Shown piece after piece: positions 1-39,963 of a DNA stretch of 64,000 nt. The translations under genes and the position numbers were made by a program. This DNA comes from Yuukianura sp. NJ FZ-2021 (taxonomy: Eukaryota), in the NCBI GenBank assembly GCA_046563655.1, contig CM102290.1, forward strand, positions 10,726,001 to 10,790,000, in the 5' to 3' direction. Each line of letters opens with the position of its first letter. Position 1 is the stretch's first letter. The notes beneath the pieces are model-generated. The model worked only from the letters and a program-made list of their open reading frames with translations, was not told where the DNA came from and searched no databases.

Positions 1-3000
1 AAAGTTAAAAGTTTAGTAGGAAAATCACTCTTTCTAATCAACTAAATTCCAAATTCCAAAAAGTTAAAAGTTTAGTAGGAAAATCACTCTTTCTAATCAA
101 CTAAATTCCAAATTCCAAAAAGTTAAAAGTTTAGTAGGAAAATCACTCTTTCTAATCAACTAAATTCCAAATTCCAAAAAGTTAAAAGTTTAGTAGGAAA
201 ATCACTCTTTCTAATCAACTAAATTCCAAATTCCAAAAAGTTAAAAGTTTAGTAGGAAAATCACTCTTTCTAATCAACTAAATTCCAAATTCCAAAAAGT
301 TAAAAGTTTAGTAGGAAAATCACTCTTTCTAATCAACTAAATTCCAAATTCCAAAAAGTTAAAAGTTTAGTAGGAAAATCACTCTTTCTAATCAACTAAA
401 TTCCAAATTCCAAAAAGTTAAAAGTTTAGTAGGAAAATCACTCTTTCTAATCAACTAAATTCCAAATTCCAAAAAGTTAAAAGTTTAGTAGGAAAATCAC
501 TCTTTCTAATCAACTAAATTCCAAATTCCAAAAAGTTAAAAGTTTAGTAGGAAAATCACTCTTTGTAATCAACTAAATTCCAAATTTCAAAACGTTAAAA
601 GTTTAGTAGGAAAATCACTCTTTCTAATCAACTAAATTCCAAATTCCAAAAAGTTAAAAGTTTAGTAGGAAAATCATTCTTTCTAATCAACTAAATTCCA
701 AATTCCAAAACGTTAAAAATTTAGTAGGACAATCACTCTGTCTAATCAACTAAATTCCAAATTTCAAAACGTTAAAAGTTTAGTAGGAAAATCACTCTTT
801 CTAATCAACTAAATTCCAAATTCCAAAAAGTTAAAAGTTTAGTAGGAAAATCACTCTTTCTAATCAACTAAATTCCAAATTCCAAAAGTTAAAAGTTTAG
901 TAGGAAAATCACTCTTTCTAATCAACTAAATTCCAAATTCCAAAAAGTTAAAAGTTTAGTAGGAAAATCACTCTTTCTAATCAACTAAATTCCAAATTCC
1001 AAAAAGTTAAAAGTTTAGTAGGAAAATCACTCTTTCTAATCAACTAAATTCCAAATTCCAAAAAGTTAAAAGTTTAGTAGGAAAATCACTCTTTCTAATC
1101 AACTAAATTCCAAATTCCAAAAAGTTAAAAGTTTAGTAGGAAAATCACTCTTTCTAATCAACTAAATTCCAAATTCCAAAAAGTTAAAAGTTTAGTAGGA
1201 AAATCACTCTTTCTAATCAACTAAATTCCAAATTTCAAAACGTTAAAAGTTTAGTAGGAAAATCACTCTTTCTAATCAACTAAATTCCAAATTCCAAAAA
1301 GTTAAAAGTTTAGTAGGAAAATCACTCTTTCTAATCAACTAAATTCCAAATTCCAAAAAGTTAAAAGTTTAGTAGGAAAATCACTCTTTCTAATCAACTA
1401 AATTCCAAATTCCAAAAAGTTAAAAGTTTAGTAGGAAAATCACTCTTTCTAATCAACTAAATTCCAAATTCCAAAAAGTTAAAAGTTTAGTAGGAAAATC
1501 ACTCTTTCTAATCAACTAAATTCCAAATTCCAAAAAGTTAAAAGTTTAGTAGGAAAATCACTCTTTCTAATCAACTAAATTACAAATTCCAAAAAGTTAA
1601 AAGTTTAGTAGGAAAATCACTCTTTCTAATCAACTAAATTCCAAATTTCAAAACGTTAAAAGTTTAGTAGGAAAATCACTCTTTCTAATCAACTAAATTC
1701 CAAATTCCAAAAAGTTAAAAGTTTAGTAGGAAAATCACTCTTTCTAATCAACTAAATTCCAAATTCCAAAAAGTTAAAAGTTTAGTAGGAAAATCACTCT
1801 TTCTAATCAACTAAATTCCAAATTCCAAAAAGTTAAAAGTTTAGTAGGAAAATCACTCTTTCTAATCAACTAAATTCCAAATTCCAAAAAGTTAAAAGTT
1901 TAGTAGGAAAATCACTCTTTCTAATCAACTAAATTCCAAATTCCAAAAAGTTAAAAGTTTAGTAGGAAAATCACTCTTTCTAATCAACTAAATTCCAAAT
2001 TCCAAAAAGTTAAAAGTTTAGTAGGAAAATCACTCTTTCTAATCAACTAAATTCCAAATTCCAAACAGCTAAAAGTTTAGTAGGAAAATCACTCTTTCTA
2101 ATCAACTAAATTCCAAATTCAAGTTAAAAGTTTAGTAGGAAAATCACTCTTTCTAATCAACTAAATTCCAAATTCCAAAAAGTTAAAAGTTTAGTAGGAA
2201 AATCACTCTTTCTAATCAACTAAATTCCAAATTCCAAAAAGTTAAAAGTTTAGTAGGAAAATCACTCTTTCTAATCAACTAAATTCCAAATTCCAAAAAG
2301 TTAAAAGTTTAGTAGGAAAATCACTCTTTCTAATCAACTAAATTCCAAATTCCAAAAAGTTAAAAGTTTAGTAGGAAAATCACTCTTTGTAATCAACTAA
2401 ATTCCAAATTTCAAAACGTTAAAAGTTTAGTAGGAAAATCACTCTTTCTAATCAACTAAATTCCAAATTCCAAAAAGTTAAAAGTTTAGTAGGAAAATCA
2501 TTCTTTCTAATCAACTAAATTCCAAATTCCAAAACGTTAAAAATTTAGTAGGACAATCACTCTGTCTAATCAACTAAATTCCAAATTTCAAAACGTTAAA
2601 AGTTTAGTAGGAAAATCACTCTTTCTAATCAACTAAATTCCAAATTCCAAAAAGTTAAAAGTTTAGTAGGAAAATCACTCTTTCTAATCAACTAAATTCC
2701 AAATTCCAAAAAGTTAAAAGTTTAGTAGGAAAATCACTCTTTCTAATCAACTAAATTCCAAATTCCAAAAAGTTAAAAGTTTAGTAGGAAAATCACTCTT
2801 TCTAATCAACTAAATTCCAAATTCCAAAATTTGTAATCAACTAAATTCCAAATTTCAAAACGTTAAAAGTTTAGTAGGAAAATCACTCTTTCTAATCAAC
2901 TAAATTCCAAATTCCAAAAAGTTAAAAGTTTAGTAGGAAAATCACTCTTTCTAATCAACTAAATTCCAAATTCCAAAACGTTAAAAATTTAGTAGGACAA

Positions 3001-6000
3001 TCACTCTGTCTAATCAACTAAATTCCAAATTTCAAAACGTTAAAAGTTTAGTAGGAAAATCACTCTTTCTAATCAACTAAATTCCAAATTTCAAAACGTT
3101 AAAAGTTTAGTAGGAAAATCACTCTTTCTAATCAACTAAATTCCAAATTCCAAAAAGTTAAAAGTTTAGTAGGAAAATCACTCTTTCTAATCAACTAAAT
3201 TCCAAATTCCAAAAAGTTAAAAGTTTAGTAGGAAAATCACTCTTTCTAATCAACTAAATTCCAAATTCCAAAACGTTAAAAGTTTAGTAGGAAAATCACT
3301 CTTTCTAATCAACTAAATTCCAAATTTCAAAACGTTAAAAGTTTAGTAGGAAAATCACTCTTTCTAATCAACTAAATTCCAAATTTCAAAACGTTAAAAG
3401 TTTAGTAGGAAAATCACTCTTTCTAATCAACTAAATTCCAAATTCCAAAAAGTTAAAAGTTTAGTAGGAAAATCACTCTTTCTAATCAACTAAATTCCAA
3501 ATTCCAAAACGTTAAAAATTTAGTAGGAAAATCACTCTTTCTAATCAACTAAATTCCAAATTCCAAAACGTTAAAAGTTTAGTAGGAAAATCACTCTTTC
3601 TAATCAACTAAATTCCAAATTCCAAAAAGTTAAAAGTTTAGTAGGAAAATCACTCTTTCTAATCAACTAAATTCCAAATTCCAAAAAGTTAAAAGTTTAG
3701 TAGGAAAATCACTCTTTCTAATCAACTAAATTCCAAATTCCAAAAAGTTAAAAGTTTAGTAGGAAAATCACTCTTTCTAATCAACTAAATTCCAAATTCC
3801 AAAAAGTTAAAAGTTTAGTAGGAAAATCACTCTTTCTAATCAACTAAATTCCAAATTCCAAAAAGTTAAAAGTTTAGTAGGAAAATCACTCTTTCTAATC
3901 AACTAAATTCCAAATTCCAAAAAGTTAAAAGTTTAGTAGGAAAATCACTCTTTCTAATCAACTAAATTCCAAATTCCAAAAAGTTAAAAGTTTAGTAGGA
4001 AAATCACTCTTTCTAATCAACTAAATTCCAAATTCCAAAAAGTTAAAAGTTTAGTAGGAAAATCACTCTTTCTAATCAACTAAATTCCAAATTCCAAAAA
4101 GTTAAAAGTTTAGTAGGAAAATCACTCTTTCTAATCAACTAAATTCCAAATTCCAAAAAGTTAAAAGTTTAGTAGGAAAATCACTCTTTGTAATCAACTA
4201 AATTCCAAATTTCAAAACGTTAAAAGTTTAGTAGGAAAATCACTCTTTCTAATCAACTAAATTCCAAATTCCAAAAAGTTAAAAGTTTAGTAGGAAAATC
4301 ACTCTTTCTAATCAACTAAATTCCAAATTCCAAAAAGTTAAAAGTTTAGTAGGAAAATCACTCTTTCTAATCAACTAAATTCCAAATTCCAAAAAGTTAA
4401 AAGTTTAGTAGGAAAATCACTCTTTCTAATCAACTAAATTCCAAATTCCAAAAAGTTAAAAGTTTAGTAGGAAAATCACTCTTTGTAATCAACTAAATTC
4501 CAAATTTCAAAACGTTAAAAGTTTAGTAGGAAAATCACTCTTTCTAATCAACTAAATTCCAAATTCCAAAAAGTTAAAAGTTTAGTAGGAAAATCATTCT
4601 TTCTAATCAACTAAATTCCAAATTCCAAAACGTTAAAAATTTAGTAGGACAATCACTCTGTCTAATCAACTAAATTCCAAATTTCAAAACGTTAAAAGTT
4701 TAGTAGGAAAATCACTCTTTCTAATCAACTAAATTCCAAATTCCAAAAAGTTAAAAGTTTAGTAGGAAAATCACTCTTTCTAATCAACTAAATTCCAAAT
4801 TCCAAAAAGTTAAAAGTTTAGTAGGAAAATCACTCTTTCTAATCAACTAAATTCCAAATTCCAAAAAGTTAAAAGTTTAGTAGGAAAATCACTCTTTCTA
4901 ATCAACTAAATTCCAAATTCCAAAAAGTTAAAAGTTTAGTAGGAAAATCACTCTTTCTAATCAACTAAATTCCAAATTCCAAAAAGTTAAAAGTTTAGTA
5001 GGAAAATCACTCTTTCTAATCAACTAAATTCCAAATTCCAAAACGTTAAAAGTTTAGTAGGAAAATCACTCTTTCTAATCAACTAAATTCCAAATTCCAA
5101 AAAGTTAAAAGTTTAGTAGGAAAATCACTCTTTCTAATCAACTAAATTCCAAATTCCAAAAAGTTAAAAGTTTAGTAGGAAAATCACTCTTTCTAATCAA
5201 CTAAATTCCAAATTCCAAAAAGTTAAAAGTTTAGTAGGAAAATCACTCTTTCTAATCAACTAAATTCCAAATTCCAAAAAGTTAAAAGTTTAGTAGGAAA
5301 ATCACTCTTTCTAATCAACTAAATTCCAAATTCCAAAAAGTTAAAAGTTTAGTAGGAAAATCACTCTTTCTAATCAACTAAATTCCAAATTCCAAAAAGT
5401 TAAAAGTTTAGTAGGAAAATCACTCTTTCTAATCAACTAAATTCCAAATTCCAAAAAGTTAAAAGTTTAGTAGGAAAATCACTCTTTCTAATCAACTAAA
5501 TTCCAAATTCCAAAAAGTTAAAAGTTTAGTAGGAAAATCACTCTTTCTAATCAACTAAATTCCAAATTCCAAAAAGTTAAAAGTTTAGTAGGAAAATCAC
5601 TCTTTCTAATCAACTAAATTCCAAATTCCAAAAAGTTAAAAGTTTAGTAGGAAAATCACTCTTTCTAATCAACTAAATTCCAAATTCCAAAAAGTTAAAA
5701 GTTTAGTAGGAAAATCACTCTTTCTAATCAACTAAATTCCAAATTCCAAAAAGTTAAAAGTTTAGTAGGAAAATCACTCTTTCTAATCAACTAAATTCCA
5801 AATTCCAAAAAGTTAAAAGTTTAGTAGGAAAATCACTCTTTCTAATCAACTAAATTCCAAATTCCAAAAAGTTAAAAGTTTAGTAGGAAAATCACTCTTT
5901 CTAATCAACTAAATTCCAAATTCCAAAAAGTTAAAAGTTTAGTAGGAAAATCACTCTTTCTAATCAACTAAATTCCAAATTCCAAAAAGTTAAAAGTTTA

Positions 6001-6573
6001 GTAGGAAAATCACTCTTTCTAATCAACTAAATTCCAAATTCCAAAAAGTTAAAAGTTTAGTAGGAAAATCACTCTTTCTAATCAACTAAATTCCAAATTC
6101 CAAAAAGTTAAAAGTTTAGTAGGAAAATCACTCTTTCTAATCAACTAAATTCCAAATTCCAAAACGTTAAAAATTTAGTAGGACAATCACTCTTTCTAAT
6201 CAACTAAATTCCAAATTTCAAAACGTTAAAAGTTTAGTAGGAAAATCACTCTTTCTAATCAACTAAATTCCAAATTCCAAAAAGTTAAAAGTTTAGTAGG
6301 AAAATCACTCTTTCTAATCAACTAAATTCCAAATTCCAAAAAGTTAAAAGTTTAGTAGGAAAATCACTCTTTCTAATCAACTAAATTCCAAATTCCAAAA
6401 AGTTAAAAGTTTAGTAGGAAAATCACTCTTTCTAATCAACTAAATTCCAAATTCCAAAAAGTTAAAAGTTTAGTAGGAAAATCACTCTTTCTAATCAACT
6501 AAATTCCAAATTCCAAAAAGTTAAAAGTTTAGTAGGAAAATCACTCTTTCTAATCAACTAAATTCCAAATTCC
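1..6573 (+). repeat. 59-bp tandem satellite, left arm (~111 copies, runs off the window start)
   Basis: Monomer AAAGTTAAAAGTTTAGTAGGAAAATCACTCTTTCTAATCAACTAAATTCCAAATTCCAA repeats head-to-tail with a 59-nt period. Copies are near-identical, with a small set of recurring variants and indels at ~885, ~2120 and ~2830. No ORFs. Confidence 0.99.
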
Positions 6574-6576
6574 TAA

Positions 6577-9500
6577 CCTACTAAACTTTTAACTTTTTGG
6601 AATTTGGAATTTAGTTGATTAGAAAGAGTGATTTTCCTACTAAACTTTTAACTTTTTGGAATTTGGAATTTAGTTGATTAGAAAGAGTGATTTTCCTACT
6701 AAACTTTTAACTTTTTGGAATTTGGAATTTAGTTGATTAGAAAGAGTGATTTTCCTACTAAACTTTTAGCTTTTTGGAATTTGGAATTTAGTTGATTAGA
6801 AAGAGTGATTTTCCTACTAAACTTTTAACTTTTTGGAATTTGGAATTTAGTTGATTAGAAAGAGTGATTTTCCTACTAAACTTTTAACTTTTTGGAATTT
6901 GGAATTTAGTTGATTAGAAAGAGTGATTTTCCTACTAAACTTTTAACGTTTTGGAATTTGGAATTTAGTTGATTAGAAAGAGTGATTTTCCTACTAAACT
7001 TTTAACTTTTTGGAATTTGGAATTTAGTTGATTAGAAAGAGTGATTTTCCTACTAAACTTTTAACTTTTTGGAATTTGGAATTTAGTTGATTAGAAAGAG
7101 TGATTTTCCTACTAAACTTTTAGCTGTTTGGAATTTGGAATTATTTGGAATTTAGTTGATTAGAAAGAGTGATTTTCCTACTAAACTTTTAACTTTTTGG
7201 AATTTGGAATTTAGTTGATTAGAAAGAGTGATTTTCCTACTAAACTTTTAACTTTTTGGAATTTGGAATTTAGTTGATTAGAAAGAGTGATTTTCCTACT
7301 AAACTTTTAACTTTTTGGAATTTGGAATTTAGTTGATTAGAAAGAGTGATTTTCCTACTAAACTTTTAACTTTTTGGAATTTGGAATTTAGTTGATTAGA
7401 AAGAGTGATTTTCCTACTAAACTTTTAACTTTTTGGAATTTGGAATTTAGTTGATTAGAAAGAGTGATTTTCCTACTAAACTTTAACTTTTTGGAATTTG
7501 GAATTTAGTTGATTAGAAAGAGTGATTTTCCTACTAAACTTTTAACTTTTTGGAATTTGGAATTTAGTTGATTAGAAAGAGTGATTTTCCTACTAAACTT
7601 TTAACTTTTTGGAATTTGGAATTTAGTTGATTAGAAAGAGTGATTTTCCTACTAAACTTTTAACTTTTTGGAATTTGGAATTTAGTTGATTAGAAAGAGT
7701 GATTTTCCTACTAAACTTTTAACTTTTTGGAATTTGGAATTTAGTTGATTAGAAAGAGTGATTTTCCTACTAAACTTTTAACTTTTTGGAATTTGGAATT
7801 TAGTTGATTAGAAAGAGTGATTTTCCTACTAAACTTTTAACTTTTTGGAATTTGGAATTTAGTTGATTAGAAAGAGTGATTTTCCTACTAAACTTTTAAC
7901 TTTTTGGAATTTGGAATTTAGTTGATTAGAAAGAGTGATTTTCCTACTAAACTTTTAACTTTTTGGAATTTTGAATTATGACATTTAGAAAGAGTGATTT
8001 TAATACTAAACTTTTAACTTTTTGGAATTTGGAATTATGCTGTTTAGAAAGAGTGATTTTCCTACTAAACTTTTAACTTTTTGGAATTTGGAATTTAGTT
8101 GATTAGAAAGAGTGATTTTCCTACTAAACTTTTAACTTTTTGGAATTTGGAATTTAGTTGATTAGAAAGAGTGATTTTCCTACTAAACTTTTAACTTTTT
8201 GGAATTTGGAATTTAGTTGATTAGAAAGAGTGATTTTCCTACTAAACTTTTAACTTTTTGGAATTTGGAATTTAGTTGATTAGAAAGAGTGATTTTCCTA
8301 CTAAACTTTTAACTTTTTGGAATTTGGAATTTAGTTGATTAGAAAGAGTGATTTTCCTACTAAACTTTTAACGTTTTGAAATTTGGAATTTAGTTGATTA
8401 GACAGAGTGATTGTCCTACTAAATTTTTAACGTTTTGGAATTTGGAATTTAGTTGATTAGAAAGAATGATTTTCCTACTAAACTTTTAACTTTTTGGAAT
8501 TTGGAATTTAGTTGATTAGAAAGAGTGATTTTCCTTTTTGGAATTTGGAATTTAGTTGATTAGAAAGAGTGATTTTCCTACTAAACTTTTAACTTTTTGG
8601 AATTTGGAATTTAGTTGATTAGAAAGAGTGATTTTCCTACTAAACTTTTAACTTTTTGGAATTTGGAATTTAGTTGATTAGAAAGAGTGATTTTCCTACT
8701 AAACTTTTAACTTTTTGGAATTTGGAATTTAGTTGATTAGAAAGAGTGATTTTCCTACTAAACTTTTAACGTTTTGAAATTTGGAATTTAGTTGATTACA
8801 AAGAGTGATTTTCCTACTAAACTTTTAACTTTTTGGAATTTGGAATTTAGTTGATTAGAAAGAGTGATTTTCCTACTAAACTTTTAACTTTTTGGAATTT
8901 GGAATTTAGTTGATTAGAAAGAGTGATTTTCCTACTAAACTTTTAACTTTTTGGAATTTGGAATTTAGTTGATTAGAAAGAGTGATTTTCCTACTAAACT
9001 TTTAACTTTTTGGAATTTGGAATTTAGTTGATTAGAAAGAGTGATTTTCCTACTAAACTTTTAACTTTTTGGAATTTGGAATTTAGTTGATTAGAAAGAG
9101 TGATTTTCCTACTAAACTTTTAACTTTTTGGAATTTGGAATTTAGTTGATTAGAAAGAGTGATTTTCCTACTAAACTTTTAACTTTTTGGAATTTGGAAT
9201 TTAGTTGATTAGAAAGAGTGATTTTCCTACTAAACTTTTAACTTTTTGGAATTTGGAATTTAGTTGATTAGAAAGAGTGATTTTCCTACTAAACTTTTAA
9301 CTTTTTGGAATTTGGAATTTAGTTGATTAGAAAGAGTGATTTTCCTACTAAACTTTTAACTTTTTGGAGTTTGGAATTTAGTTGATTAGAAAGAGTGATT
9401 TTCCTACTAAACTTTTAACTTTTTGGAATTTGGAATTTAGTTGATTAGAAAGAGTGATTTTCCTACTAAACTTTTAACGTTTTGAAATTTGGAATTTAGT

Positions 9501-12500
9501 TGATTAGACAGAGTGATTGTCCTACTAAATTTTTAACGTTTTGGAATTTGGAATTTAGTTGATTAGAAAGAGTGATTTTCCTACTAAACTTTTAACTTTT
9601 TGGAATTTGGAATTTAGTTGATTAGAAAGAGTGATTTTCCTACTAAACTTTTAACGTTTTGAAATTTGGAATTTAGTTGATTAGAAAGAGTGATTTTCCT
9701 ACTAAACTTTTAACGTTTTGAAATTTGGAATTTAGTTGATTAGACAGAGTGATTGTCCTACTAAATTTTTAACGTTTTGGAATTTGGAATTTAGTTGATT
9801 AGAAAGAGTGATTTTCCTACTAAACTTTTAACTTTTTGGAATTTGGAATTTAGTTGATTAGAAAGAGTGATTTTCCTACTAAACTTTTAACTTTTTGGAA
9901 TTTGGAATTTAGTTGATTAGAAAGAGTGATTTTCCTACTAAACTTTTAACGTTTTGAAATTTGGAATTTAGTTGATTAGAAAGAGTGATTTTCCTACTAA
10001 ACTTTTAACGTTTTGAAATTTGGAATTTAGTTGATTAGACAGAGTGATTGTCCTACTAAATTTTTAACGTTTTGGAATTTGGAATTTAGTTGATTAGAAA
10101 GAGTGATTTTCCTACTAAACTTTTAACTTTTTGGAATTTGGAATTTAGTTGATTAGAAAGAGTGATTTTCCTACTAAACTTTTAACGTTTTGAAATTTGG
10201 AATTTAGTTGATTACAAAGAGTGATTTTCCTACTAAACTTTTAACTTTTTGGAATTTGGAATTTAGTTGATTAGAAAGAGTGATTTTCCTACTAAACTTT
10301 TAACTTTTTGGAATTTGGAATTTAGTTGATTAGAAAGAGTGATTTTCCTACTAAACTTTTAACTTTTTGGAATTTGGAATTTAGTTGATTAGAAAGAGTG
10401 ATTTTCCTACTAAACTTTTAACTTTTTGGAATTTGGAATTTAGTTGATTAGAAAGAGTGATTTTCCTACTAAACTTTTAACTTTTTGGAATTTGGAATTT
10501 AGTTGATTAGAAAGAGTGATTTTCCTACTAAACTTTTAACTTTTTGGAATTTGGAATTTAGTTGATTAGAAAGAGTGATTTTCCTACTAAACTTTTAACT
10601 TTTTGGAATTTGGAATTTAGTTGATTAGAAAGAGTGATTTTCCTACTAAACTTTTAACTTTTTGGAATTTGGAATTTAGTTGATTAGAAAGAGTGATTTT
10701 CCTACTAAACTTTTAACTTTTTGGAATTTGGAATTTAGTTGATTAGAAAGAGTGATTTTCCTACTAAACTTTTAACTTTTTGGAATTTGGAATTTAGTTG
10801 ATTAGAAAGAGTGATTTTCCTACTAAACTTTTAACTTTTTGGAATTTGGAATTTAGTTGATTAGAAAGAGTGATTTTCCTACTAAACTTTTAACTTTTTG
10901 GAATTTGGAATTTAGTTGATTAGAAAGAGTGATTTTCCTACTAAACTTTTAACGTTTTGAAATTTGGAATTTAGTTGATTAGACAGAGTGATTGTCCTAC
11001 TAAATTTTTAACGTTTTGGAATTTGGAATTTAGTTGATTAGAAAGAATGATTTTCCTACTAAACTTTTAACTTTTTGGAATTTGGAATTTAGTTGATTAG
11101 AAAGAGTGATTTTCCTACTAAACTTTTAACGTTTTGAAATTTGGAATTTAGTTGATTACAAAGAGTGATTTTCCTACTAAACTTTTAACTTTTTGGAATT
11201 TGGAATTTAGTTGATTAGAAAGAGTGATTTTCCTACTAAACTTTTAACTTTTTGGAATTTGGAATTTAGTTGATTAGAAAGAGTGATTTTCCTACTAAAC
11301 TTTTAACTTTTTGGAATTTGGAATTTAGTTGATTAGAAAGAGTGATTTTCCTACTAAACTTTTAACTTTTTGGAATTTGGAATTTAGTTGATTAGAAAGA
11401 GTGATTTTCCTACTAAACTTTTAACTTTTTGGAATTTGGAATTTAGTTGATTAGAAAGAGTGATTTTCCTACTAAACTTTTAGCTGTTTGGAATTTGGAA
11501 TTTAGTTGATTAGAAAGAGTGATTTTCCTACTAAACTTTTAACTTTTTGGAATTTGGAATTTAGTTGATTAGAAAGAGTGATTTTCCTACTAAACTTTTA
11601 ACTTTTTGGAATTTGGAATTTAGTTGATTAGAAAGAGTGATTTTCCTACTAAACTTTTAACTTTTTGGAATTTGGAATTTAGTTGATTAGAAAGAGTGAT
11701 TTTCCTACTAAACTTTTAACTTTTTGGAATTTGGAATTTAGTTGATTAGAAAGAGTGATTTTCCTACTAAACTTTTAACTTTTTGGAATTTGGAATTTAG
11801 TTGATTAGAAAGAGTGATTTTCCTACTAAACTTTTAACTTTTTGGAATTTGGAATTTAGTTGATTAGAAAGAGTGATTTTCCTACTAAACTTTTAACGTT
11901 TTGAAATTTGGAATTTAGTTGATTAGAAAGAGTGATTTTCCTACTAAACTTTTAACTTTTTGGTATTTGTAATTTAGTTGATTAGAAAGAGTGATTTTCC
12001 TACTAAACGTTTAACTTTTTGGAATTTGTAATTTAGTTGATTAGAAAGAGTGATTTTCCTACTAAACTTTTAACTTTTTGGAATTTGGAATTTAGTTGAT
12101 TAGAAAGAGTGATTTTCCTACTAAACTTTTAACTTTTTGGAATTTGGAATTTAGTTGATTAGAAAGAGTGATTTACCTACTAAACTTTTAACTTTTTGGA
12201 ATTTGGAATTTAGTTGATTAGAAAGAGTGATTTTCCTACTAAACTTTTAACTTTTTGGAATTTGGAATTTAGTTGGTTAGAAAGAGTGATTTTCCTACTA
12301 AACTTTTAACGTTTTGAAATTTGGAATTTAGTTGATTAGAAAGAGTGATTTTCCTACTAAACTTTTAACTTTTTGGAATTTGGAATTTAGTTGATTAGAA
12401 AGAGTGATTTTCCTACTAAACTTTTAGCTGTTTGGAATTTGGAATTTAGTTGATTAGAAAGAGTGATTTTCCTACTAAACTTTTAACTTTTTGGAATTTG

Positions 12501-12975
12501 GAATTTAGTTGATTAGAAAGAGTGATTTTCCTACTAAACTTTTAACTTTTTGGAATTTGGAATTTAGTTGATTAGAAAGAGTGATTTTCCTACTAAACTT
12601 TTAACTTTTTGGAATTTGGAATTTAGTTGATTAGAAAGAGTGATTTTCCTACTAAACTTTTAACTTTTTGGAATTTGGAATTTAGTTGATTAGAAAGAGT
12701 GATTTTCCTACTAAACTTTTAACTTTTTGGAATTTGGAATTTAGTTGATTAGAAAGAGTGATTTTCCTACTAAACTTTTAACTTTTTGGAATTTGGAATT
12801 TAGTTGATTAGAAAGAGTGATTTTCCTACTAAACTTTTAACTTTTTGGAATTTGGAATTTAGTTGATTAGAAAGAGTGATTTTCCTACTAAACTTTTAAC
12901 GTTTTGAAATTTGGAATTATGTTATTTAAAAACAGTGATTTTCATAGTAAATTTTTAACTTTTTGAAAAATTTGA
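6577..12975 (-). repeat. 59-bp tandem satellite, right arm, inverted relative to left arm (~108 copies)
   Basis: Exact reverse complement of the left-arm monomer (TTGGAATTTGGAATTTAGTTGATTAGAAAGAGTGATTTTCCTACTAAACTTTTAACTTT). The last monomer (~12918-12975) is degenerate and fades into unique sequence. Confidence 0.99.
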
Positions 12976-13351
12976 ACAGAGTGAAATCTGAGCTAACCTT
13001 GAACAACATTTTTATGCAAACGGTTTTTTCGCATTTTGGTGAAATTGTGCACAAAAAGGCCCCATATCTCCACTGAAAGTTATGAGCCACGTTTCGTTGC
13101 ATAAATCTCGTGAAAACAGTTTCTTAACGTTTTTCTTGCGTTTGCGGACAGCCGGTGTAAAAACCTTATCAATTGCCAACTCCCTCCAGAAGACCTATGC
13201 TCAACCCTTAAGCATCGCCCTGCCTTGTTGTAGTTTGATACTACTGCGCATGCGTAGTTCTACTGATTGATTGAGATGAGAATCAGAATGATAAAGCAAT
13301 TAGAATTCAATTTGGTGCAGCTCCCGCCATCTCTTGGTAAAGCAGAGCAAT

Positions 13352-13403
13352 ATTCCTGGATGTAAAAACACATCTCGATTCCTGGTGTCAAAAACACATC
13401 TCA
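13352..13403. repeat. 26-bp tandem duplication
   Basis: attcctggatgtaaaaacacatctcg followed by attcctggtgtcaaaaacacatctca. Confidence 0.8.
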
Positions 13404-13404
13404 A

Positions 13405-13797
13405 TTTTTTTTGCAACAGAAAGTGAGGACCAGGATTTTCTACATGGAATTAACTGTCGGCATTTTTCGCAACAGAAATTAGACGTCAGCACTTTTCGCG
13501 ACAGGAATTAGCTACCAGGATTTTTCGCAACAGAAAATGACTGTCAGGATTTTTCGCAACAGAAAATAGCTGTCAGGATTTTTCGCGACAGAAATTAGCT
13601 ATCAGGATTTTTCGCAACAGAAAATGACTGTCATGATTTTTCGCAACAGAAATTCACTGTCAGCATTTTTCGAGGCAGGAATTAGCTACCAGGATTTTTC
13701 GCAACAGAAATTGCCTGTCACGATTTGACGCAACAGGATTTTCTGCAACAGGAATTGCCCGTTTTTTGGTATTCCCGTTGCGGAAAAAATCCTGTTG
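13405..13797. repeat. 29-bp minisatellite (~12 diverged copies) ending in an inverted copy
   Basis: The unit is approximately TGTCAGGATTTTTCGCAACAGAAAATAGC with period 29 (e.g. 13541 to 13570). Segments 13731-13755 and 13771-13797 are near-perfect inverted repeats. Confidence 0.9.
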
Positions 13798-15577
13798 TTT
13801 ATCAGCAAAACTCCCCCCATAAAAATAAGTTGCACTAAAAGCCTCAGCCTGGGTTGAATTAAGGTCTAAAGGCCGATTCCCAAAATGTCTCAATATTATC
13901 ACTTCATAATAATTAAAAGCACAATGACAATAACTAACTAACGAGAAAAATTATTCTATCATAATCCTAATTAGATAGCAGAAAAATTTAATGTGCTGGT
14001 TTATTTTTGTCACGTTAAATTCAAAATCTGGACTCCTGATATTGAACTCATATCAGAATATCCCAACGCGAATACAATAATATACCGCTGGCTTACGGCA
14101 ATCAATATCCTACAGTGGTTTGAATTTAATTTTCCCACGCTCGACAGCTGTGTTTCTGAGTTACAAAATTCTTCATTCATTGAAATTATCGGAGAGGCGT
14201 TCGGAAGATGTGAAATATTTGTGAAAACACAAATGCTCAAAAGCGTCGCACCATACTCACCGAACAAGGGTTCCAAAATATATGTAATCTTAAAACCAAT
14301 ATTCTTCACATTCTTGTTTTGCATGGTATTGTATTAATTTCTTTGTTTTTATTGAAGTTAGCATGAGCTTAGAAGATATTTTTTACATTTTTTTTTACCT
14401 ATCTTATCTATTCCTTCTATCTACATTCCCAACGGTTCTGTCGTTTTAGATGTCAAATGAAAAGACATTTTAACTACGTTCAATTATTACTTTTTTAAAA
14501 CTACATGTTTGCACTATTTGTTTAAATGCGGTTTGCAGTCGGTTTATTTGGACAAAAATGAGGTTGATTGTATGTATGTGGAATATTCATGTGTCAAATC
14601 GGAGACTTAAAAGTAAACGTTTTACATAAAAGTTTGGCATCTACAGCAAATTTTATTTAGAAGCAAAGTGCGTCCATGAAAATAAACAAGAAATGAAATC
14701 AAACTTTTACTTCACAAGCCTATAACCTAATTGATTTGGGCAATCTGCGAGCCAGAATTTGCATAACGGGATTATTTGGTTCGGGGGCGGTTGATTCTCC
14801 AAGTTTTACACCGCTGTGAATCTAATCGAATCATCATCATCTGTATCGTCCCATCGTCTTTTCACTTTCTTTCCTGTTTTCTGATTTGGTAAACTGTTGG
14901 AGTTAAGTTCTCGTCATATCATCGTCATCAAAGTGGCTACACAAAGATTATGTGTCCGTGTTGTCCAAATAAACAACTTAATTCCGTTCTAATTTGAACC
15001 ATTTGTTTTTGCGACCCAACCCTGCTAGATTTGTTTTTAATTGGTTCAGGTCAGGCAGGTACGTACGTTTACGCACTATATTCTTGAATTTGTGCTGCTT
15101 ACCATTCCATGTCGTCAAAACTTTTACTCTGCGTCGTTTTATTTTGACTTTCAGTGTTTAGGAGGTCCATCCAGATCCAGGTTGGTCCTAATTTTGGGTA
15201 CTTCCGTTTTCCACACCGATAAATTCTTGATTCTTCCGAGTCCAGTCGACAGTATTTTTAGACGTCCGGTAAGACGTGCCCAAATTGATTAACGACTACT
15301 TTGTCCTACATTTCTTATGTGTACTATTGCAATGAGGAATTTAAGCCATAGGTTATTTGGCACGAAAATTTAAGACTGAGAAGCTTACCATTTCGAGTGT
15401 AACATTTACTGACCACTACTACTGGTTTTTTCAAGATAACTCTTGAAAAATGGTTACATCATAATTTATAGTGTTATGGTCGTTTCTTCAGTTAGACACG
15501 GATGAAGATTTCAATTACTGTTTAAACTTGACATTACGCACGTTAAAATTTTCAGATTCTTCCATTGCGTGGACAAG

Positions 15578-17565
15578 ATGGTATCATTTGGGGAATCAGC
15601 CTACGACAACAAGAATCGTAAAGGGCCTACCATTGGTTCTAAAACTTCAAAGGACAAACCTACTCCGGTTACGAGAATTCTGAGCGATTCACAACTGGTA
15701 AAGCTCAAGGAACATCGCTATAGCTGTGTCTGTACAAGTATGTTGGATCCTTACCTTCAACCTTACTGGGGCTGGCTAGTGCAACAGCTTCCACTTTGGA
15801 TGGCTCCGAATCTAATTACTATTCTTGGCTTACTCGTTAATGTCGTTACCAGCCTTATCCTTGTCTACTACAGTCCAGATTGCAATCAACAGGTTATTGT
15901 TAAAAACTGATTTAATACTGCTAAAATCATTGTAAGAATTACAGGCAAAATGTGATTATTTATTTGCTGATAATTTTAGGTTCCAGCCTGGTCACTCATT
16001 CTGTGTGCTGCTGGATTGTTCATTTATCAAAGCCTGGATGCAATTGATGGGAAACAAGCACGGCGAACAAAATCGAGCTCTCCATTAGGTGAACTTTTTG
16101 ACCACGGATGTGATTCGGTCTCAACGGGTAAGATTTTTTCTGCCTGCTTTATTTTATGCACTCTTCGTAACAGATCGATCTGATGTCTGATCGTATGGTT
16201 TTACTTTGGCTAGTCTTCGTGTCACTTGGATTATGCGTGGCTTGTCGTCTCGGGCATTCTCCTTACTTGATGTTCCTTCAATCCTTCATGGCGGTGACGT
16301 TATTCTACTTTGCTCACTGGCAGACGTATGTCACAGGTATCTTCTACTTGGCTTATAAACGAATGAAATCATCATTATTTATTTCTAATTTTGTTTCATT
16401 TTTCAGGGGTACTTAATTTCGGGTTCTTCGACGTAACTGAAGCACAAGCTTCTATTATAGTGATTCATTTGGTGACTGCTGCCTTCGGAGGAAGTTTCTG
16501 GACCGACGTGGTAATATTCGTAGTCCTCTGAGTATTGCACTGTACTTCTTATGCCATTTTTTTTAAAGCATTCTGATTTTGCATTCTAGAGAATTCCTGT
16601 GTTGGACTTGCCACTGTATGCAATTTACGTAGTCGTAGCACTAGGAGGGGCTGTGTATACGCTTTGGTGCGAATTCAATACCATTTTGTATAAGGGTGCT
16701 GGAAAAAATGGATCCTCGATTGCTGTGAGTGCCTATTTAGAAAGAATGTGTCAACTACTATATAATTTATGTAACTTCTCTTCATTGCAGGGTACCAGTG
16801 TCCTATTCCCAGGAATACCTTTCGCCTTGGTCGTGGTTCCAGCGTTTTACATTGCCACCAAAAGCAAAGTTGGAGTCTTCGAACAAAACCCTGCTATTTA
16901 CTGTCTAACATTTGGCTTAATCGCTGCAAAAGTCACAAATAGACTTGTCGTAAGTTGGTAAACTTATTAACAACGATTCCTGTCAGTTCTGACATTTCGA
17001 ATTGATTGATTTGGCAGGTTGCACACATGACCAAGAGTGAGATGGACTATTTCGATCCAGCGCTTGCTGGCCCGTTGCTACTCTTCCTCAACCAATATTT
17101 CAGTATTGGAGTCGATGAGTCGTTTCTTCTGTACGTTAGTTTGGTAAGTACTACTAGCAATGCAAAACTTTTGTTTTCAATTTAAACACAAATCTTCCAT
17201 TCGTGCTCATCGTTGAAAGAAAATGTTTGTTTGTTTTTTTTTTTGTGTGTGTGATTCTGACAGGGCCTTTATCATTTCCCTTCCTCCTTCGTGCACTGAA
17301 TAATGAAAATTTTGTCTTTTTTTTTGTTTATGGATTTGAAAAGGGTTTAGTAAGTTTCGAGCTGTTCCGTTACTCGAAGAAAGTGTGTCAAGAAATTTGC
17401 GAGTCTCTCAACATAATGCTATTCAGAATCCAAGTTCCACCGCACGAGCCACCGCCAGTGGAACGCACTGCTGATGTTCTCCCTAAACTTTACAGCCACA
17501 CTGGCGGTGGTGATGCAGATACTGTTTTAAGTGGGGGCCACTTCAAGGGCAAAGCCAAGAAATAG
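15578..17565 (+). CDS. CEPT1: Choline/ethanolamine phosphotransferase (CEPT1/CHPT1 family, CDP-alcohol phosphotransferase), 8 coding exons, ~443 aa
   Basis: Exons 15578-15892, 15980-16127, 16214-16336, 16407-16510, 16590-16724, 16791-16949, 17018-17143, 17344-17565, all GT-AG with consistent phases. Contains the family motif [26 protein letters not shown], plus [36 protein letters not shown] and VAHMTKSEM. Probable 5' UTR exons end at ~15058 and 15268. Confidence 0.95.
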
Positions 17566-26400: not shown

Positions 26401-29400
26401 GAAAGTATTGAAAGTTTAGAAACAATTTCTTTTGAAAGATTTGTAGTTTTTTTTTCCTCCAAAACTTTAAATTTTAAACGAAAACGTTTTTTTTTTTGGT
26501 ATGCACCACTTAACTCGTGTAAATTCAAATTTGTATAATTATTCTCTCATCGTCCTTACTGTTGGCTTTACATGTTAAGATCTTTTCCAACAAAAATTTC
26601 TGTCTCACTTTCCATGTTTGAACATGTCTGTAAAACTTTTACTCACAATCTGTTTTTCCCTTGTTCTGTTTCCTGTGGAGCAGGTCATGGGTCGCATGGA
26701 CCTGCAGGTCAGTCTATAACTTTTCTAACTTCCTCTTACATTGCACGCTTTTGTCCCTGTGTTTTATTTTTTCCGTTTTCATGTTTTCTACTTTTTTAAT
26801 TAACAGTTTAAAAAAAAGTGAAATTTTTTGAAATTTCTTGTAAATATGTATTTTAACGTTTTGCTTATTGCCATCTCCAGTGCATGTCACATTTGTTTCT
26901 GTACGTTAACTCCAAGCATCTCTAGTTTTCCTTTGAAACGGTAGAGTCTAAGCGACATTTTAATTCCCAAAACTGTTTTTATCTGATGTGGGGATTGGAA
27001 TTGATTGAAAATTCCCCTCAACATAGAAGTCATAGCTTTAGGTGGAAGAATCCGGTAGTTTTTTATTTATTTTTCATTTATGCAATTTATTATGGAATCT
27101 AGATTTTAGTTTTAATATTTTTTTATTGCGTGGGAAGTTTTTTTTGGGATGAGTTTTGAATCTAATTTTCCGAGCGAATAGCAGCACATTTTAGGACATT
27201 TGAAATCACTTTAAGAATTTGCTCGGATTTCAAAAACACGAAAGCTAATCCTTATGTTTTCTCTAAAAATCAGGCACTGACCAGCATGTCATCGGAACCA
27301 GCGTTTCCTGAACTGTCTTCACGTCATGACAGTGGGATTTCGCCAAATCAGCCGTTTCAGCCGTTTCCATCGTCACAACCACAAGCTGGTGGCTCTGCCT
27401 TGCAACCGACGCCGACGGCTCAATCCGGCCCGAGTCCCAAGCATCCCACGGGATTCAATCCGCTGATTCACGGAAACGATGTGGATTCGGTGGATGTGGC
27501 GACCAGGGTGGCTATGGTAAGCAAAATTAAAACTAAGTTATAAAAACTACTTTAAGGTCATTGACCTCTGACGTTGATTTTACTAAAGGTCAAATTCTTC
27601 AACTCTGCCAATTTACTTGCCAACTTCAGCGAACACACGAGAACCCTCAGACTCTACCCGCGTCCCGTCGTTGCGTTTCAAATTTCAAGTTTCCTTCGCT
27701 CTCGGCCTCATCCGCCTTCACCGTTCCTGTGTAGATTTGCCAGAACGCAAGTAAGCACATAAAATTTGGCTTTTTGCATTTGGATTTTGAAAAAAAATGT
27801 TGACCTTTGACTTATGACATACGCTAACTAACTATTTGTGACTTCACAGGCTGTCGAGTACTTGGCAGAATGGAGCTTGGCTCCAACCAATCAGGCTTTC
27901 CTTCGTGTTCAAACGGGAGTGTATGATCCCGCCATTATTGGTGACAAACCCAAATGGTATGCTCATGCCCTCACGCCAATCAAGTTTGATATTCATTCTG
28001 ATGTTCCTGCACTTTGTGCACTACTCCGAGTTTCACACAACGTCTCCGCTCCAGCTACGGGTAACAACAACGTGACCTTTGACCTTATGTCCAAAATGGC
28101 AAAACTAAAATTTTAAGCTGAAACTAACATTTCCATTTTAAAAAACTTGCTTTGAACTCAACTTCTCTTTGATTCAGATGAAAGTGGATCGGATTCCGAA
28201 GGAGAAAGTGGAGAAAGTACCTCCAGCTACTCGTCTCTGTCCGACTTTGTCTCAGAACTGGCGTCATCTGACTTGTCACCCAGCGGTGTCACGGGTTCAC
28301 ACCACCGTCGAAAATCGTCACAACAGCGCCATTTTCAACATGCCTTTGAGGAAATGGAAGAACGACGGGAAGACCGTGAACTGCGAGAACTTGACCGAAA
28401 TATAACTTCCCTTTGTTCGTCACTCGACATTTCCACGGTTTATCGTCCACCATCGTCACTCCAATTGCCTGGAGAAACTGGAATGGCCAAGGGGAAGGGA
28501 TCAGGATCTCCTTCAGCTTCTGGATCTGATTCGGAGTCAAGTGACTCTGGACCTGAAGATGTTCCGGTGGAAAGTCGTCGATCTTCAGGAGGTGACAAGG
28601 ACAAGGACAGCGCTGGAGACGTTGCCGACAGCAGTCATCATCCTCCAAGTGCCGGACCACCGGACAAACCAACCCGCCAGCCAAGTTTCGGTTCGGGATC
28701 ACTCCTGGGGCACATTGCGTCGCAGGCCAAAGAACTTGTGAAGGAAACGAAGCGGCAGAGTAGTCAAGAAGGCTTGTTGTCAACTGTTGACAAGGTAAGA
28801 CACGTGACAGGGAAAGTTCAAAAAAAAAAGTTTAAAAGTTAAAAAAAGTTTTTTAAAAGGACGCTTGTTTCCTAAACTTTTCTTCTGTGTTTCTGTCTCT
28901 GTACTTTTTCTGTTTCTTTTCTGCTTTTTCCAAACTTTTTAGCTCAAAACAAAAACTAGAGAGCGTCTGACTGAAGTGAAGCGTCAGGGATCTTCGGCGG
29001 AAGACTCTCCTTTCTTTTCTCCATTGGAGCACGTTAGTTTTCCAAACTTCTTGTTTCTACTGTCCAACCTAACTTATCTTTTCTGAAAAAAATTACTGTG
29101 ATTACTAAATAACAATTTACTAAATTAACTTTGGGTAACTAATTTAGTCCTGAAGTTTTTTCGCGATGTTCTCTAACTGTTACGTTTGGTTTAGATTACA
29201 ATTCAAGCCAAAAGAGCTGCTGAGGAAGCGGGAAAAAGCGTACAAGCTGGACTCAGCCAATCGAGTCTCGACGATCTCAAAACAGCCAGTCGGAGTACAT
29301 GGGATGACATTACAAAATCCGCAAGGAAGGGACTCCTTAAGGTAACACAAAATTTTGCATTTTGCCGTCTTTAAAAAAAGCTTAGGGAAGCAACACATAC

Positions 29401-32400
29401 CATCAGATTGTTTTTTATTTCTTTTTTCTACAAAAAAATATTGGTAATTGAGATTTATTTTTCAGCTACAAAAACAAAATTCCAAAAAACTAAAAATTAT
29501 TTTCCTCACCCTACGCAGAAAATGACTTGCTTCCCACGCGTTCCAAAATTTTGTGAAGATCATAAAGATAAAAAATTTATGAAATTTAAGGAAAAAAAAA
29601 GAGAAATTTCGGGTGTTGTTACCGCTCTTTCTCGACGTAGTCATTTTGTGATTGATTTCGATGAACTTTACCAAGTATTGTTCAGGAGGGGGGAGACGTC
29701 ATGGGAGTCAAACGTCAGTTCTAGTCCCAACGACAGGCGTAAATTGATCCCGACAGTTTCAGAAACTAAAAACAGAAAGAGAAAAATAAGTAAGAAATAA
29801 CGACGAATGATTCCCACTGTTTCAGTCTCTTGGCGAATCTTCTGAACGGAGCATCAGTGACTCTCGGTCGGAGTCCATGGAGCGGAAGGACTCCGTGGCT
29901 TCCGTGGCGTCCCAGTCTCAGCGGGCAGTGGTCCAGCCGCAGCATCCACAGCATCAGCAGTATCCTCATCCCAGAACAGCCTCAACTGGGAGAGACTTTC
30001 TATCGAACATGAGCACTGAACTTAATGGATTGGCATCTACAACGTCCTCCATGTTCTCGGAGCTTTTTGGTAAAATGGATACACTTTTATTAAGTTAGTC
30101 ATAATAAGTCAATAGTCCTTGAACCCATTTTAAAAATCCTGCTTTTAGTCTTTTACTCAATTATGAAAAGCCATAGCCTAAAATTTCCTGGATCCCGCTG
30201 AGCTACAAGAGTCTTCGATTTTAGTACTGCTAACGAAATTTCAGCAGCGCTTAAATTCGATTCATCACATTTTGTCATCGGAAATCCTTGCGTAATTACA
30301 TGTTGACTCCGCCTAGTTATTGACTCTTCGAGTTGTAACGGATGGGTGGTAAAGTCATTTTCCAATTACTGTTTTCAGCTTGACAGTTTCTTTGTTCATT
30401 TTGAATTTAGGCGGCAATCGAATCAGTGTGTCAGCCTGTGCGAGTCCAATTCGTGGAAGAAGTCCAGCTCCATCAATGGCTGGAAGTACTGGCAGTCTTC
30501 CAGCTACTGTGTCACGGTCTCCACAACGCGAACCGTCAGTGGCATCATCTCAACAGTCAGCATTTGGTCCATTTCCAACAGGACGAAAGGGATTGGTGGA
30601 AAGATCGTCACTCATTAGACATACGACGACGCATCTTCATCCACAAAAAGGCAAAGCGGAAATTAAAATGCTCCAAAAGTTTTCTGGAAGCCAAGGGTCC
30701 AATGTAACCAGTGCAGAAAATCAAGCTTTCATTTCCGATGTAAGACTTGATTTTATATTAACGTTTTATTTACTATTTTATCTATTGATTTATTTATTTA
30801 TTGTTGCAGGTTGGAAATCAAGTCATGGCGGGAGAGGGAGTAGGATGGCTGAGAGTGGGGAGGCTAAAGAAACTTTTGGAAGATGAAAGTTACCGCGTGA
30901 TGCTCGTGGTCAAAATCAATAAAGCGTTTGAACGGAAGGTTGGACCAGATGACCACGTCGACGACGTTGTAAGGACAAGCTTCTTGTCTTGTATAGCCTA
31001 ACTCACCCTAATTCAGCACGACATAAAAGAATTTAACCTAACCTAATCGTACTTGTTTCAGTGCGTGACAAAAACAGTGTGGAAGGGAATGTTGAAATTG
31101 TTACAACTTTTGGTCAACGGACTTGAGCACAGCTATGCAAACCGGGGACTCGGTGGAATGGCCTCTGCTTTTCAGGTGAAATTTCGAACAAATACTTCCG
31201 AAAATGTCGAAAAAATTGAAAAAGAAACTTTTTCTTATGAAATTTTTGTACAGGTCCTTGAAATCGCACATACGCACTACTGGACAAAAGACTTGTCGGA
31301 CTTGGGTGGAGACCATGCGCAGTACTCTCAGTTTCTGGAACCAAATGCTATTAGTCCCGGCATGTCTATGGCAGGATCACCAACGTCTTCTGCGCAAGCC
31401 TCACCCGATGCTTCGCGACGACCTTCTGCTCAATCCTGTGATCCAGGTGAGTTGAATATTGTGACTATGAGATAGTAGTTTGCAATGAAGATTTCCAATT
31501 TGAAAATATCAAATTTCCAAATTTTGATTCAAAAATATGGTCAACACTTTCAGATCCAGGTTCAGAACACACTGCGATTCAGCAGTTGCCCCAGCATCCA
31601 CCCGGGGCCAACACAGCCGAAATATTCCGAGACCTGCTTCAGGGCAAAAAACATTCCTTGATAGCCAGGCTTAGCTCATCAGAGTCTCACGTAAATTTTC
31701 ATTTTTGAGCGCTAAATTCAAAAATTCAACTGATTTTGAAATTTTTCCAATTTGGAAATCTAGATTGAAGGTCACGCGGAAGGTCAACCTCCAGGAAGTG
31801 TAGTGATGAACCCATGGCCCCCCGGGGGGCTCCAGCTTCCGGCACACGGAAGCAAACCCAAGCTTACAAGTCGTTTGTCTCAGATGTCGCTCCGTTCTAC
31901 TGTGTCTGATACAGAACTGGAACAGGTACGGTTTACTCGTTAAGGATTTTGAAAATTCAGTTTGAAATTTAGAAGTTACGTAACCTCCAAAGTTAAAGCA
32001 AAAGTTGAAATTCAAGACTGAACTTATCCAGGGTTCCGGTAGAGGAAAACGAAGTCCGAGTGTTTGGTCCAGTAAATCTGCGTTGGCAGCAGGACTCCGC
32101 TACCACGCAGGATCCTTGATTCCTACTGGCAGTTCTCCGACAAGTCCCGAAAATGGTCGAATGTACCTCTTCGAGGGACTGGTGAAGGAAAGATCCAGTT
32201 TGTGGGATCAGATGCAGTTTTGGGAAGATGCATTCCTGGATGCAGTGGCACAGGAGAGAGAAATGGTCGGGATGGACCAAGGACCGCGGGAAATGATGGA
32301 CAGATACCAAAGTTTGAGTGACAGTGAGAAGAAACGACTGGAGCACGAAGAAGACCGACTACTGGCGACACAGTTATACAATCTAGTTTCTTTCATGTTG

Positions 32401-38827: not shown

Positions 38828-39963
38828 AGAAAAAAATGAAAGTGCCCGGATATCTCTGCAATGCCAGGGATTTTCAAAATGGCCAACAACTGCAACGGAC
38901 ACACTAATAGCGAGTTCTACTTAACATTTTAATAACTTATGAAGCAATATCAGTTACTTTCTAGCAAAAAAAAAATACTTTTAGAAATTTAGAATTCAAA
39001 CTGACACAAAAGGCTCATGAGTAGGGTTCACTTTAGGTTTTTCTATAACTTGACCTGAATGGAGTTAAACTTGACCTTTTGAGAAGGTGTAGGTTAGGGA
39101 AGATTTTAGCTAGTCACTTCTAACGTCGAGATGTCAAATCCATAAATACTAATATCAAGTTTTACAAAAGAAAATATTCTTAACTACTCAGAAAAAAAAA
39201 CGAAGTGAAAGGAAAGAGATCCTCGTCGACGGTAATAAAATCAGACTACAACAGTTGACCGGATGAATTTTAATTTTTAATTTGCTCTAATAAGGTAGTG
39301 AGTCAGTTTTTCTTGACAACCGTTAGTTGGGTAAGGTCCACCACAGTCGTTCTTCAGCATTTGACGGGTTTAGATTTCAGATTTTTTTTTTAGTTTCTGT
39401 TAGTTTTTACATCTTTTTGTTACAATAATTTCGAAAAGTTTGAAAAATCTTTTGGAAATTTTGGATATCAACTTACTTTTATGTTGTTGATTTCTAATGG
39501 TATACACTTTCTTTGAGTTTTGGATTTTTACAATCGTTTTTTTTTACTGTGCTTTATCTTTTGTCAATTTTTGATACATTTTAAAATTTTATTTTTTGAA
39601 AACTTTTGAATTTCGAAGATTTTGCATTAGTTTATATTGAATTCAATTATAATTATTTTGCTACATCGTGTATTAATACACAAACAGTTCACATTTGATG
39701 TCTGAGCAAAGTATGTTAAACTGATCGTGAGTTATGTCCCTTATGTTATGGACAAATAAATATTATTTTTTCATACTATTTCACTATTTCAGCTTTCTGA
39801 AAAGAAAAGATTAGCACATTTTGGGGAAACACGTTTTTTAATCTTAAAAAGCAGAAATGCTGAGTGAAACAGATTGATACCGTAACCATAAATTGAAAAA
39901 TTCACTAAAGAACTCCGAAAATTTCTTGCTAAAAAGAATTTCAAAATATCTCATTCCTTTTCT

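Follow-up and report, generated by a model that had tools for sequence, protein, structure and literature searches.

The first 12,990 nucleotides of a 64,000-nt stretch of genomic DNA from Yuukianura sp. NJ FZ-2021 (GenBank assembly GCA_046563655.1, contig CM102290.1, positions 10,726,001 to 10,790,000 of the forward strand; hereafter the window) are filled by a tandem array of a 59-bp satellite unit with 25% GC, and the orientation of this array reverses at positions 6574–6576, where a three-nucleotide filler, TAA, lies between two oppositely oriented subarrays. The geometry of the array, the mirrored order of variant monomers in its two arms, and the changes private to each arm are read directly from the DNA. 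We favor, with a probability that we would put at roughly 55%, the reading that the locus is a genuine head-to-head satellite array, or "macro-dyad," that arose from one inverted duplication and was reshaped later by ordinary array turnover.

Tandem Repeats Finder (TRF) reports the 59-bp repeat at 1–2829 and 2830–6573 in the same orientation and its reverse complement at 6577–12965, with 96–98% matches, and the GC and AT skews both reverse their sign between 6 and 7 kb. The strand flip that an earlier sequence-only reading of this DNA had placed at about 6574 is thus seen by TRF, by the skew change, and in the sequence at 6574–6576. A search of the whole window with a 29-nt monomer core, allowing at most 3 mismatches, returned 216 matches, 111 of them on the forward strand (starts 11–6527) and 105 on the reverse strand (starts 6617–12865), and no match to the core was found anywhere in the 13–64 kb part of the window. 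The left subarray (1–6573, forward strand) comprises about 112 monomers in TRF rows with 97–98% matches and is cut by the window start, its length being at least 6573 nt; the right subarray (6577–12990, reverse strand) comprises about 110 monomers over about 6414 nt and ends in unique flanking DNA at an edge that was read in the sequence. The variant events recorded by a phase-aware caller number 67 for the left arm and 85 for the right. The TRF consensus of the unit contains two internal 7-bp tandem duplications, AAATTCC and AAAAGTT, each present twice.

At the junction (6574–6576, unstranded), a left monomer cut after phase 56 abuts, across the TAA filler, a reverse monomer cut at phase 19, the sequence reading ...AAATTCC-TAA-CCTACTAAAC.... 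No foreign sequence longer than 3 nt is present at this point, and inspection by eye found no inverted microhomology there. Such a junction is compatible with sister-chromatid end-joining after unequal resection or with a template switch accompanied by a small insertion, and this one junction fits either of the two routes named in the sequence-only reading, breakage-fusion-bridge and template switching; among the human inverted duplication chromosomes described in one study, 5 of 18 fold-back junctions without repeat homology bear small insertions instead of microhomology (PMC3907307). Folded as single-stranded DNA, the central 291 nt give a near-perfect hairpin (−134.9 kcal/mol, z = −31) with a predicted loop of about 19–25 nt; this fold is a trivial outcome of the arms being inverted and has no bearing on extrusion in chromatin of the cruciforms that the sequence-only reading had raised as a possibility.

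An inverted junction may also be produced by an assembler. The flip at 6574 would then be a mis-join made through a chimeric fold-back read or a palindromic read from whole-genome amplification (WGA), and the left arm would derive from the other haplotype, or be a consensus into which the array had been collapsed, placed in reverse at a contig end; overall, we consider an artifact of this type unlikely. Because the array is already in progress at position 1, the window may begin at a contig end, where fold-back mis-joins tend to arise. Fold-back reads are put at about 0.55–0.6% of Oxford Nanopore genomic reads in the account of PMC12338684, and WGA is described as a source of palindromic chimeras (PMC6218980). 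Chimeras of either kind resemble the present locus in that two arms meet in inverted orientation with hardly any or no sequence between them, perhaps near the end of a contig. However, the junction holds no adapter-length insert, the window contains no N, and, as set out below, the arms are not copies of each other.

Read outward from the junction, the two arms carry their variant monomers in a mirrored order that exceeds chance. We treated each arm as a string of monomer types and used as a null model 300 arrangements in which the variant runs and consensus runs of the right arm were shuffled. The mirror-collinear monomer score is 26.5, against 17.2 ± 2.1 for the block shuffles (maximum 23.1; none of the 300 reaches 26.5), and reversing the order of the right-arm monomers gives a score of 4.2. 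At the nucleotide level, one core segment of 709 nt has no mismatch on its correct diagonal and another of 771 nt has 6; shifting the register by one to five monomers raises these counts to 16–20 and 16–28, respectively. Two simpler procedures were set aside: rare 15-mers used as markers yielded just 62 rare k-mers with an inverted partner, spread over several diagonals, most variants being recurrent, and we therefore worked at the monomer level; base-level global alignment with ordinary scores favored a longer, wrong register in the outer part of the arms.

The sequence-only reading had listed 14 pairs of diagnostic variants at mirror positions, and in all 14 the same variant type occurs on both arms, with coordinate sums of 13552, 13548, and 13048 as it had given them; the pair 2833/10215 is masked by a phase jump in the caller and was read directly from the sequence. 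That reading had also called the diagnostic variants rare. They are mirrored, but most are recurrent monomer types: 2A>C is present in 24 copies on the left arm and 19 on the right, and 55C>T in 15 and 14, respectively. Because the variants recur, many diagonals compete and single position coincidences prove little.

No fixed mirror sum describes a whole arm (13048, for example, matches at just 2407 of 3731 positions over 2840–6570), and the mirror map is piecewise, with sums that run, going inward, 13552, 13548, 13048, 12989, 13063, 13064, and 13113. The map aligns 5233 nt with 33 mismatches (99.37% identity) and contains 47 shared variant positions, 5 substitutions private to the left arm, and 22 private to the right; these counts come from the explicit piecewise map, since realignment with cheap gaps hides private variant monomers in gaps. 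Between one diagonal and the next, the left arm has gaps of 4 and 500 nt; the right arm has gaps of 74 nt and 1 nt as well as a 10-nt deletion that reduces one monomer to 49 nt; and the arms differ by one 59-nt monomer. The well-supported core of the map extends over 1235–4690 of the left arm (forward strand) and 8373–12317 of the right arm (reverse strand). Left segments 1180–4453 and 4528–5578 hold 46 of the 47 shared variant positions and a single left-private substitution (5044), and on the right, an alignment with cheap gaps joins blocks with sums 13611, 13552, 13548, 13048, 12989, and 13063 over 3564 nt at the cost of 6 mismatches.

The local monomer alignment ends at left 4674 and right 8389. 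The last strong shared anchor (4690/8373) stands 1883 nt from the junction in the left arm and 1796 nt from it in the right. Right-arm indels account for 50 nt of this 87-nt disparity and the asymmetry of the junction for the other 37 nt, and the innermost sum, 13113, equals the junction sum of 13150 less the same 37-nt offset between the junction monomer cuts. Anchor distances and sums both match the junction, and the array is therefore a true palindrome about this point, not merely two similar inverted segments. The symmetry axis coincides with the junction, with one shared variant backing the axis over the inner 1.9 kb.

Direct repeats are also present within the arms. A block of ten variants over four monomers at 565–770 (forward strand) recurs with an identical variant series at 2389–2594 and 4485–4690 of the left arm, at direct offsets of 1824, 2096, and 3920 nt, all 10 variants being common to each offset; on the right arm the block is found at 11159–10954 and, interrupted, at 8799...8373. 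A monomer with variants 1C and 4C stands, elsewhere in the array, five monomers ahead of the ten-variant block. These repeats bear on a second explanation, namely that a simple two-break inversion turned part of a one-directional array with long direct segmental duplications, the mirrored order being a by-product of higher-order repeats. Variant blocks that recur directly at 1824- and 2096-nt offsets are what this explanation predicts, block shuffles still reach scores of about 17, and direction changes in mouse centromeric satellites have been ascribed to inversions (as cited in PMC12581902). The geometry asks a great deal of it, however. One breakpoint must sit at the array edge and its partner precisely a duplication period from it, which presupposes a 6.5-kb direct duplication; a diagonal that meets the junction within 87 nt would be a coincidence of about 3% (180 of 6500 nt, a rough estimate); and undoing the flip puts the degenerate monomers of the array edge in mid-array. 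The local mirror score of 31.35 is, moreover, about twice any direct similarity within an arm (best scores 16.9 on the left and 16.6 on the right). We therefore judge a two-break inversion very improbable and retain one inverted duplication as the better account of the mirrored order.

If the two arms descend from one duplication, their differences record what each has undergone since. The largest is a left-arm phase break at 2826–2833 (forward strand), where the phase passes from 1 to 30 at 2829/2830; the right arm stays in phase over the corresponding 10718–10219, and the left arm thus lacks 500 nt (8 × 59 + 28) relative to the right. This is the 28-nt phase break of the sequence-only reading, and the 4-nt left-arm deletion that it described is present at 2121. 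The right arm has a phase break of its own at 8530–8540 (reverse strand), a 74-nt deletion (59 + 15) relative to left 4454–4527 that appears as a 15-nt phase jump at 8533, a 74-nt left-only gap in the alignment, and a 44-nt TRF row at 8490–8579. A 10-nt deletion, also private to the right arm, leaves the 49-nt partial monomer at 7138–7146 (reverse strand), with a phase jump of +49 at 7142 and a left-only 49-nt gap at 5922–5970. Two right-private variant monomers of the "CATAATTC" type (7965–8080, reverse strand; variants 8043–7972), related to a degenerate edge monomer, are absent at the left mirror position, and the right-arm private variants reported earlier were all recovered, at 7972–8043, 11964, 12009, 12175, and 12276.

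Some differences lie close to the junction. The nearest private substitution of the right arm is at 6769, 192 nt away, and a marker monomer private to the left arm, a nearly complete monomer of an old type, lies at 6163–6226 (forward strand), 350–410 nt from the junction; its mirror partner at 6948 retains 1 of 5 variants. The right arm carries a 1C/4C monomer at 7123–7126 that the left arm does not have, and we suggest that this monomer and the left 6163–6226 monomer may represent one ancestral unit that eroded differently in each arm. Variant monomers have been partially erased toward the consensus in both arms: besides the right-arm partner at 6948, the left arm keeps 3 of 6 variant positions of each series at 3274–3333 and 3510–3569. 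The suggestion that the arms later diverged or were homogenized is accordingly well founded in its first half, the arms having diverged, and the erasure fits homogenization.

These arm-private changes also bear on the case for an assembly artifact. A single-molecule fold-back read cannot supply both arms, because the arms differ near the junction, from 192 nt outward on the right and 350 nt outward on the left, and because each of three phase-breaking deletions occurs in one arm and not in the other. Fold-back and WGA chimeras copy one molecule (PMC12338684, PMC6218980) and their arms should match around the junction, as should those of a missing-adapter read, whereas here there are private deletions of 500, 74, and 10 nt and 27 private substitutions. 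A chimeric read with one arm of less than about 200 nt of pure consensus satellite would not be expected to seed an assembler overlap, and errors of satellite collapse or expansion would be expected in whole monomers, not in steps of 28, 15, or 10 nt. A single fold-back chimeric read is thus an unlikely source. What remains is a chimeric-read mis-join of two natural versions of the array, for example from two haplotypes. Allelic differences could explain the indels and the mismatch of about 0.6%, and an allelic copy would show mirror homology at equal distances from the junction; yet an allelic copy of similar length would have run into an inverted flank, which the left arm does not do at the expected place, and this route, too, seems unlikely. 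The artifact caveat attached to the sequence-only reading carries less weight, since the arms differ in ways that copies of one molecule would not.

Several observations nevertheless weigh against a single inverted duplication in a correctly assembled array. Private substitutions are unevenly shared, with 22 on the right and 5 on the left (binomial p = 0.0015), and variant types seen only once number 14 in the right arm, 3 of them in the degenerate edge, and 0 in the left. Arms of equal age that evolve alike would not give this pattern, which needs an edge effect or stronger homogenization of the left arm, or else hints at a left arm that is a consensus-like assembly product; a consensus-like sequence would, like the left arm, have no variant type of its own. 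Array edges tend to escape homogenization, and the outermost 1 kb of the right array contains four of the isolated singletons of this arm, which fits an escape of this kind as an account of the right-arm singletons. The inner 1.9 kb or so is variant-poor and weakly mirrored: its single shared position is 6165/6948, left 5971–6536 (sum 13113) has 1 shared, 4 left-private, and 3 right-private positions, and left 4974–5921 has no shared variant. The outer boundaries of the arms are not mirror-equivalent either. Clean satellite fills the left arm as far as position 1, about 580–680 nt beyond the mirror image (left ~577–680) of the right edge at about 12990, so that left 1 to ~580 has no mirror partner, and the end of this arm is cut by the window. 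Finally, position 1 of the window falls within the left arm and may be a contig end, and a single array is in view in 64 kb.

The boundary asymmetry also qualifies the proposal of the sequence-only reading that the left arm is a fold-back duplicate of the right. A shared origin as an inverted duplication holds up, but a simple fold-back copying of the present right arm is not supported, given that no inverted flank is found at left ~577–680. At the right boundary itself, the monomers next to the unique DNA are degenerate (12903–12995, reverse strand, read in the sequence; variant events at 12974–12901). These edge monomers share the variants 10G>A, 31T>G, and 55C>T of a minority, "old" monomer type, and because they carry its variants, we suggest that the minority type is ancestral and that the consensus type was amplified later.

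The mechanism, direction, and age of the inverted duplication are matters of inference. A break or a stalled fork inside a one-directional 59-bp array would have been repaired by joining or copying onto the complementary strand, either through sister-chromatid fusion or through fold-back or template switching. Such repair would have left one monomer truncated after phase 56 and a reverse one truncated at phase 19, with three filler bases between them and with both arms starting, outward from the junction, with an identical order of variant monomers. Each arm would then have been reshaped separately by out-of-register deletions (500 nt on the left; 74 and 10 nt on the right), by gain or loss of whole monomers, by 1–4-nt indels, and by new point mutations, while short conversion tracts may have replaced old variant monomers with the consensus.

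The closest described relatives of this architecture are the satellite macro-dyads of Tribolium beetles. In T. freemani, arrays have a median length of 9.3–16.3 kb, 71.8% consist of two inverted subarrays, and at the inversion points an abruptly truncated monomer gives way directly to a reverse monomer that is cut at another position, extraneous sequence being absent and the loops measuring 9–27 bp (PMC12581902). The same organization is described for T. madens, whose authors state that macro-dyad symmetries have been documented in Tribolium only (PMC13081366). Like the arrays of T. freemani, T. madens, and T. castaneum, as described in these two papers, the present locus is a multi-kilobase array of two inverted subarrays of roughly similar lengths, its inversion point consists of truncated monomers with essentially no extraneous sequence (phase 56, TAA, phase 19), and its predicted loop is small, about 19–25 nt. 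There are differences as well. The Tribolium arrays are reported in the thousands, in multi-megabase centromeric or pericentromeric regions, whereas we see one array about 2.5 kb from a gene; they are intermingled with a minor satellite, whereas here no second related satellite is found and the right side is unique DNA with genes from 15.5 kb; and they share a few conserved inversion types, whereas we can point to one junction only. The lineage differs also, the protein matches of the present DNA being springtail-like. A mirrored order of monomer variants between subarrays, present here, is not reported in the relevant passages of PMC12581902 and PMC13081366.

The Tribolium comparison raises a third explanation, in which a dyad unit arrived or spread pre-formed, either as a foldback-type transposon, with long inverted termini of tandem repeats and little or no center, or as a macro-dyad array propagated via circular DNA. 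Drosophila FB foldback transposons have tandem repeats in their long inverted termini, and the right arm of the present array ends in degenerate monomers, as the subterminal repeats of such elements might. Tetris and Rehavkus foldback transposons are described as bearing satellite repeats in inverted termini that can expand to long arrays, and thus likewise have two long inverted tandem-repeat arms that abut with little central sequence (PMC12581902); in Tribolium, inversion sites conserved over thousands of arrays imply the spread of whole units (PMC13081366). Against this, the window contains no transposase-like open reading frame and no second copy of the unit, matches to the monomer core being confined to the array, and the 29-bp repeat at 13390–13766 in the flank is unrelated to the 59-bp unit. 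The left end lies outside the window, hence there is no terminal inverted repeat or target-site duplication to point to. We consider the arrival of a ready-made dyad quite unlikely.

An inverted duplication arising in place has a different parallel in the fold-back inverted duplications of human chromosomes, which are attributed to breakage, intrastrand fold-back or sister fusion, and a dicentric intermediate (PMC3907307). These share with our locus inverted and non-inverted copies around a short non-duplicated spacer, but their spacers measure 766–70,466 bp and they involve megabase duplications and terminal deletions, whereas the asymmetric spacer here is about 25–40 nt. The present duplication is, in addition, limited to the satellite array, with none of the flank copied. 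As for the satellite unit itself, a check for contamination found 0 matches to the monomer in 185,579 prokaryote genomes, a 20-nt monomer string had 0 matches in a literature text search, and a search of the springtail satellite literature listed nothing on such a repeat.

The DNA to the right of the array holds other repeats and several genes. About 400 nt past the satellite edge lies the 29-bp tandem repeat (13390–13766), with about 10–13 copies and 79% matches, which is also scored as an 87-bp period; kinship of this repeat to the 59-mer was considered and rejected, since the local score of 17 compares with a shuffle mean of 18 and 210 of 300 shuffles are as good. A 26-bp unit is present twice at 13352–13406. 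Exons of a choline/ethanolamine phosphotransferase (CHPT1/CEPT1) homolog follow at 15518–17565 (forward strand), the first recognizable coding exon beginning at about 15.5 kb, some 2.5 kb from the array edge, and matching solved structures with E = 1.5e-21; it is this gene that the sequence-only reading had termed active. Exons of a MADD/DENN homolog occupy approximately 27000–33400 (forward strand; Pfam: Death_MADD at 31984–32547, E = 1.9e-41, and PH_MADD at 33007–33357). An AT-rich stretch at 34000–40000 (28–35% GC, most of the non-satellite window having 36–47%) separates them from an otopetrin proton-channel gene at 40108–41704, perhaps extending to 43539 (reverse strand; Pfam: Otopetrin, E = 7e-68 and 3e-59). 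Within an open frame on the otopetrin strand, a 15-bp unit is repeated six times at 43233–43325. Exons of a STRIP homolog (N1221/DUF3402) lie at 46057–49312 (forward strand), and Rfam returned no match at gathering score over the whole window. The best matches of the otopetrin exon are springtail proteins with 60–66% identity, and such matches put the window in an arthropod, probably one related to springtails.

Our reading of the locus as one inverted duplication implies no function; the simplest view is of a neutral structural feature that lies next to a gene for phospholipid synthesis. As a single locus of a known kind it is of modest importance whether natural or not, and as an artifact it would serve as a useful warning case, in which private markers lie 200–600 nt from the junction. 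There is a slim chance that macro-dyad arrays are a wider arthropod feature that also occurs in small form in gene-rich DNA, and that this locus is a natural 13-kb palindrome with a readable shared origin and arm-specific conversion, from which long hairpin RNA might be made close to a housekeeping gene. If the array is real, it would show that satellite arrays composed of two facing subarrays also exist outside Tribolium; its marker monomers would permit the reconstruction of deletions, monomer gains, and conversion tracts arm by arm, and it would constitute a small natural experiment on the stabilization and homogenization of palindromic repeats.

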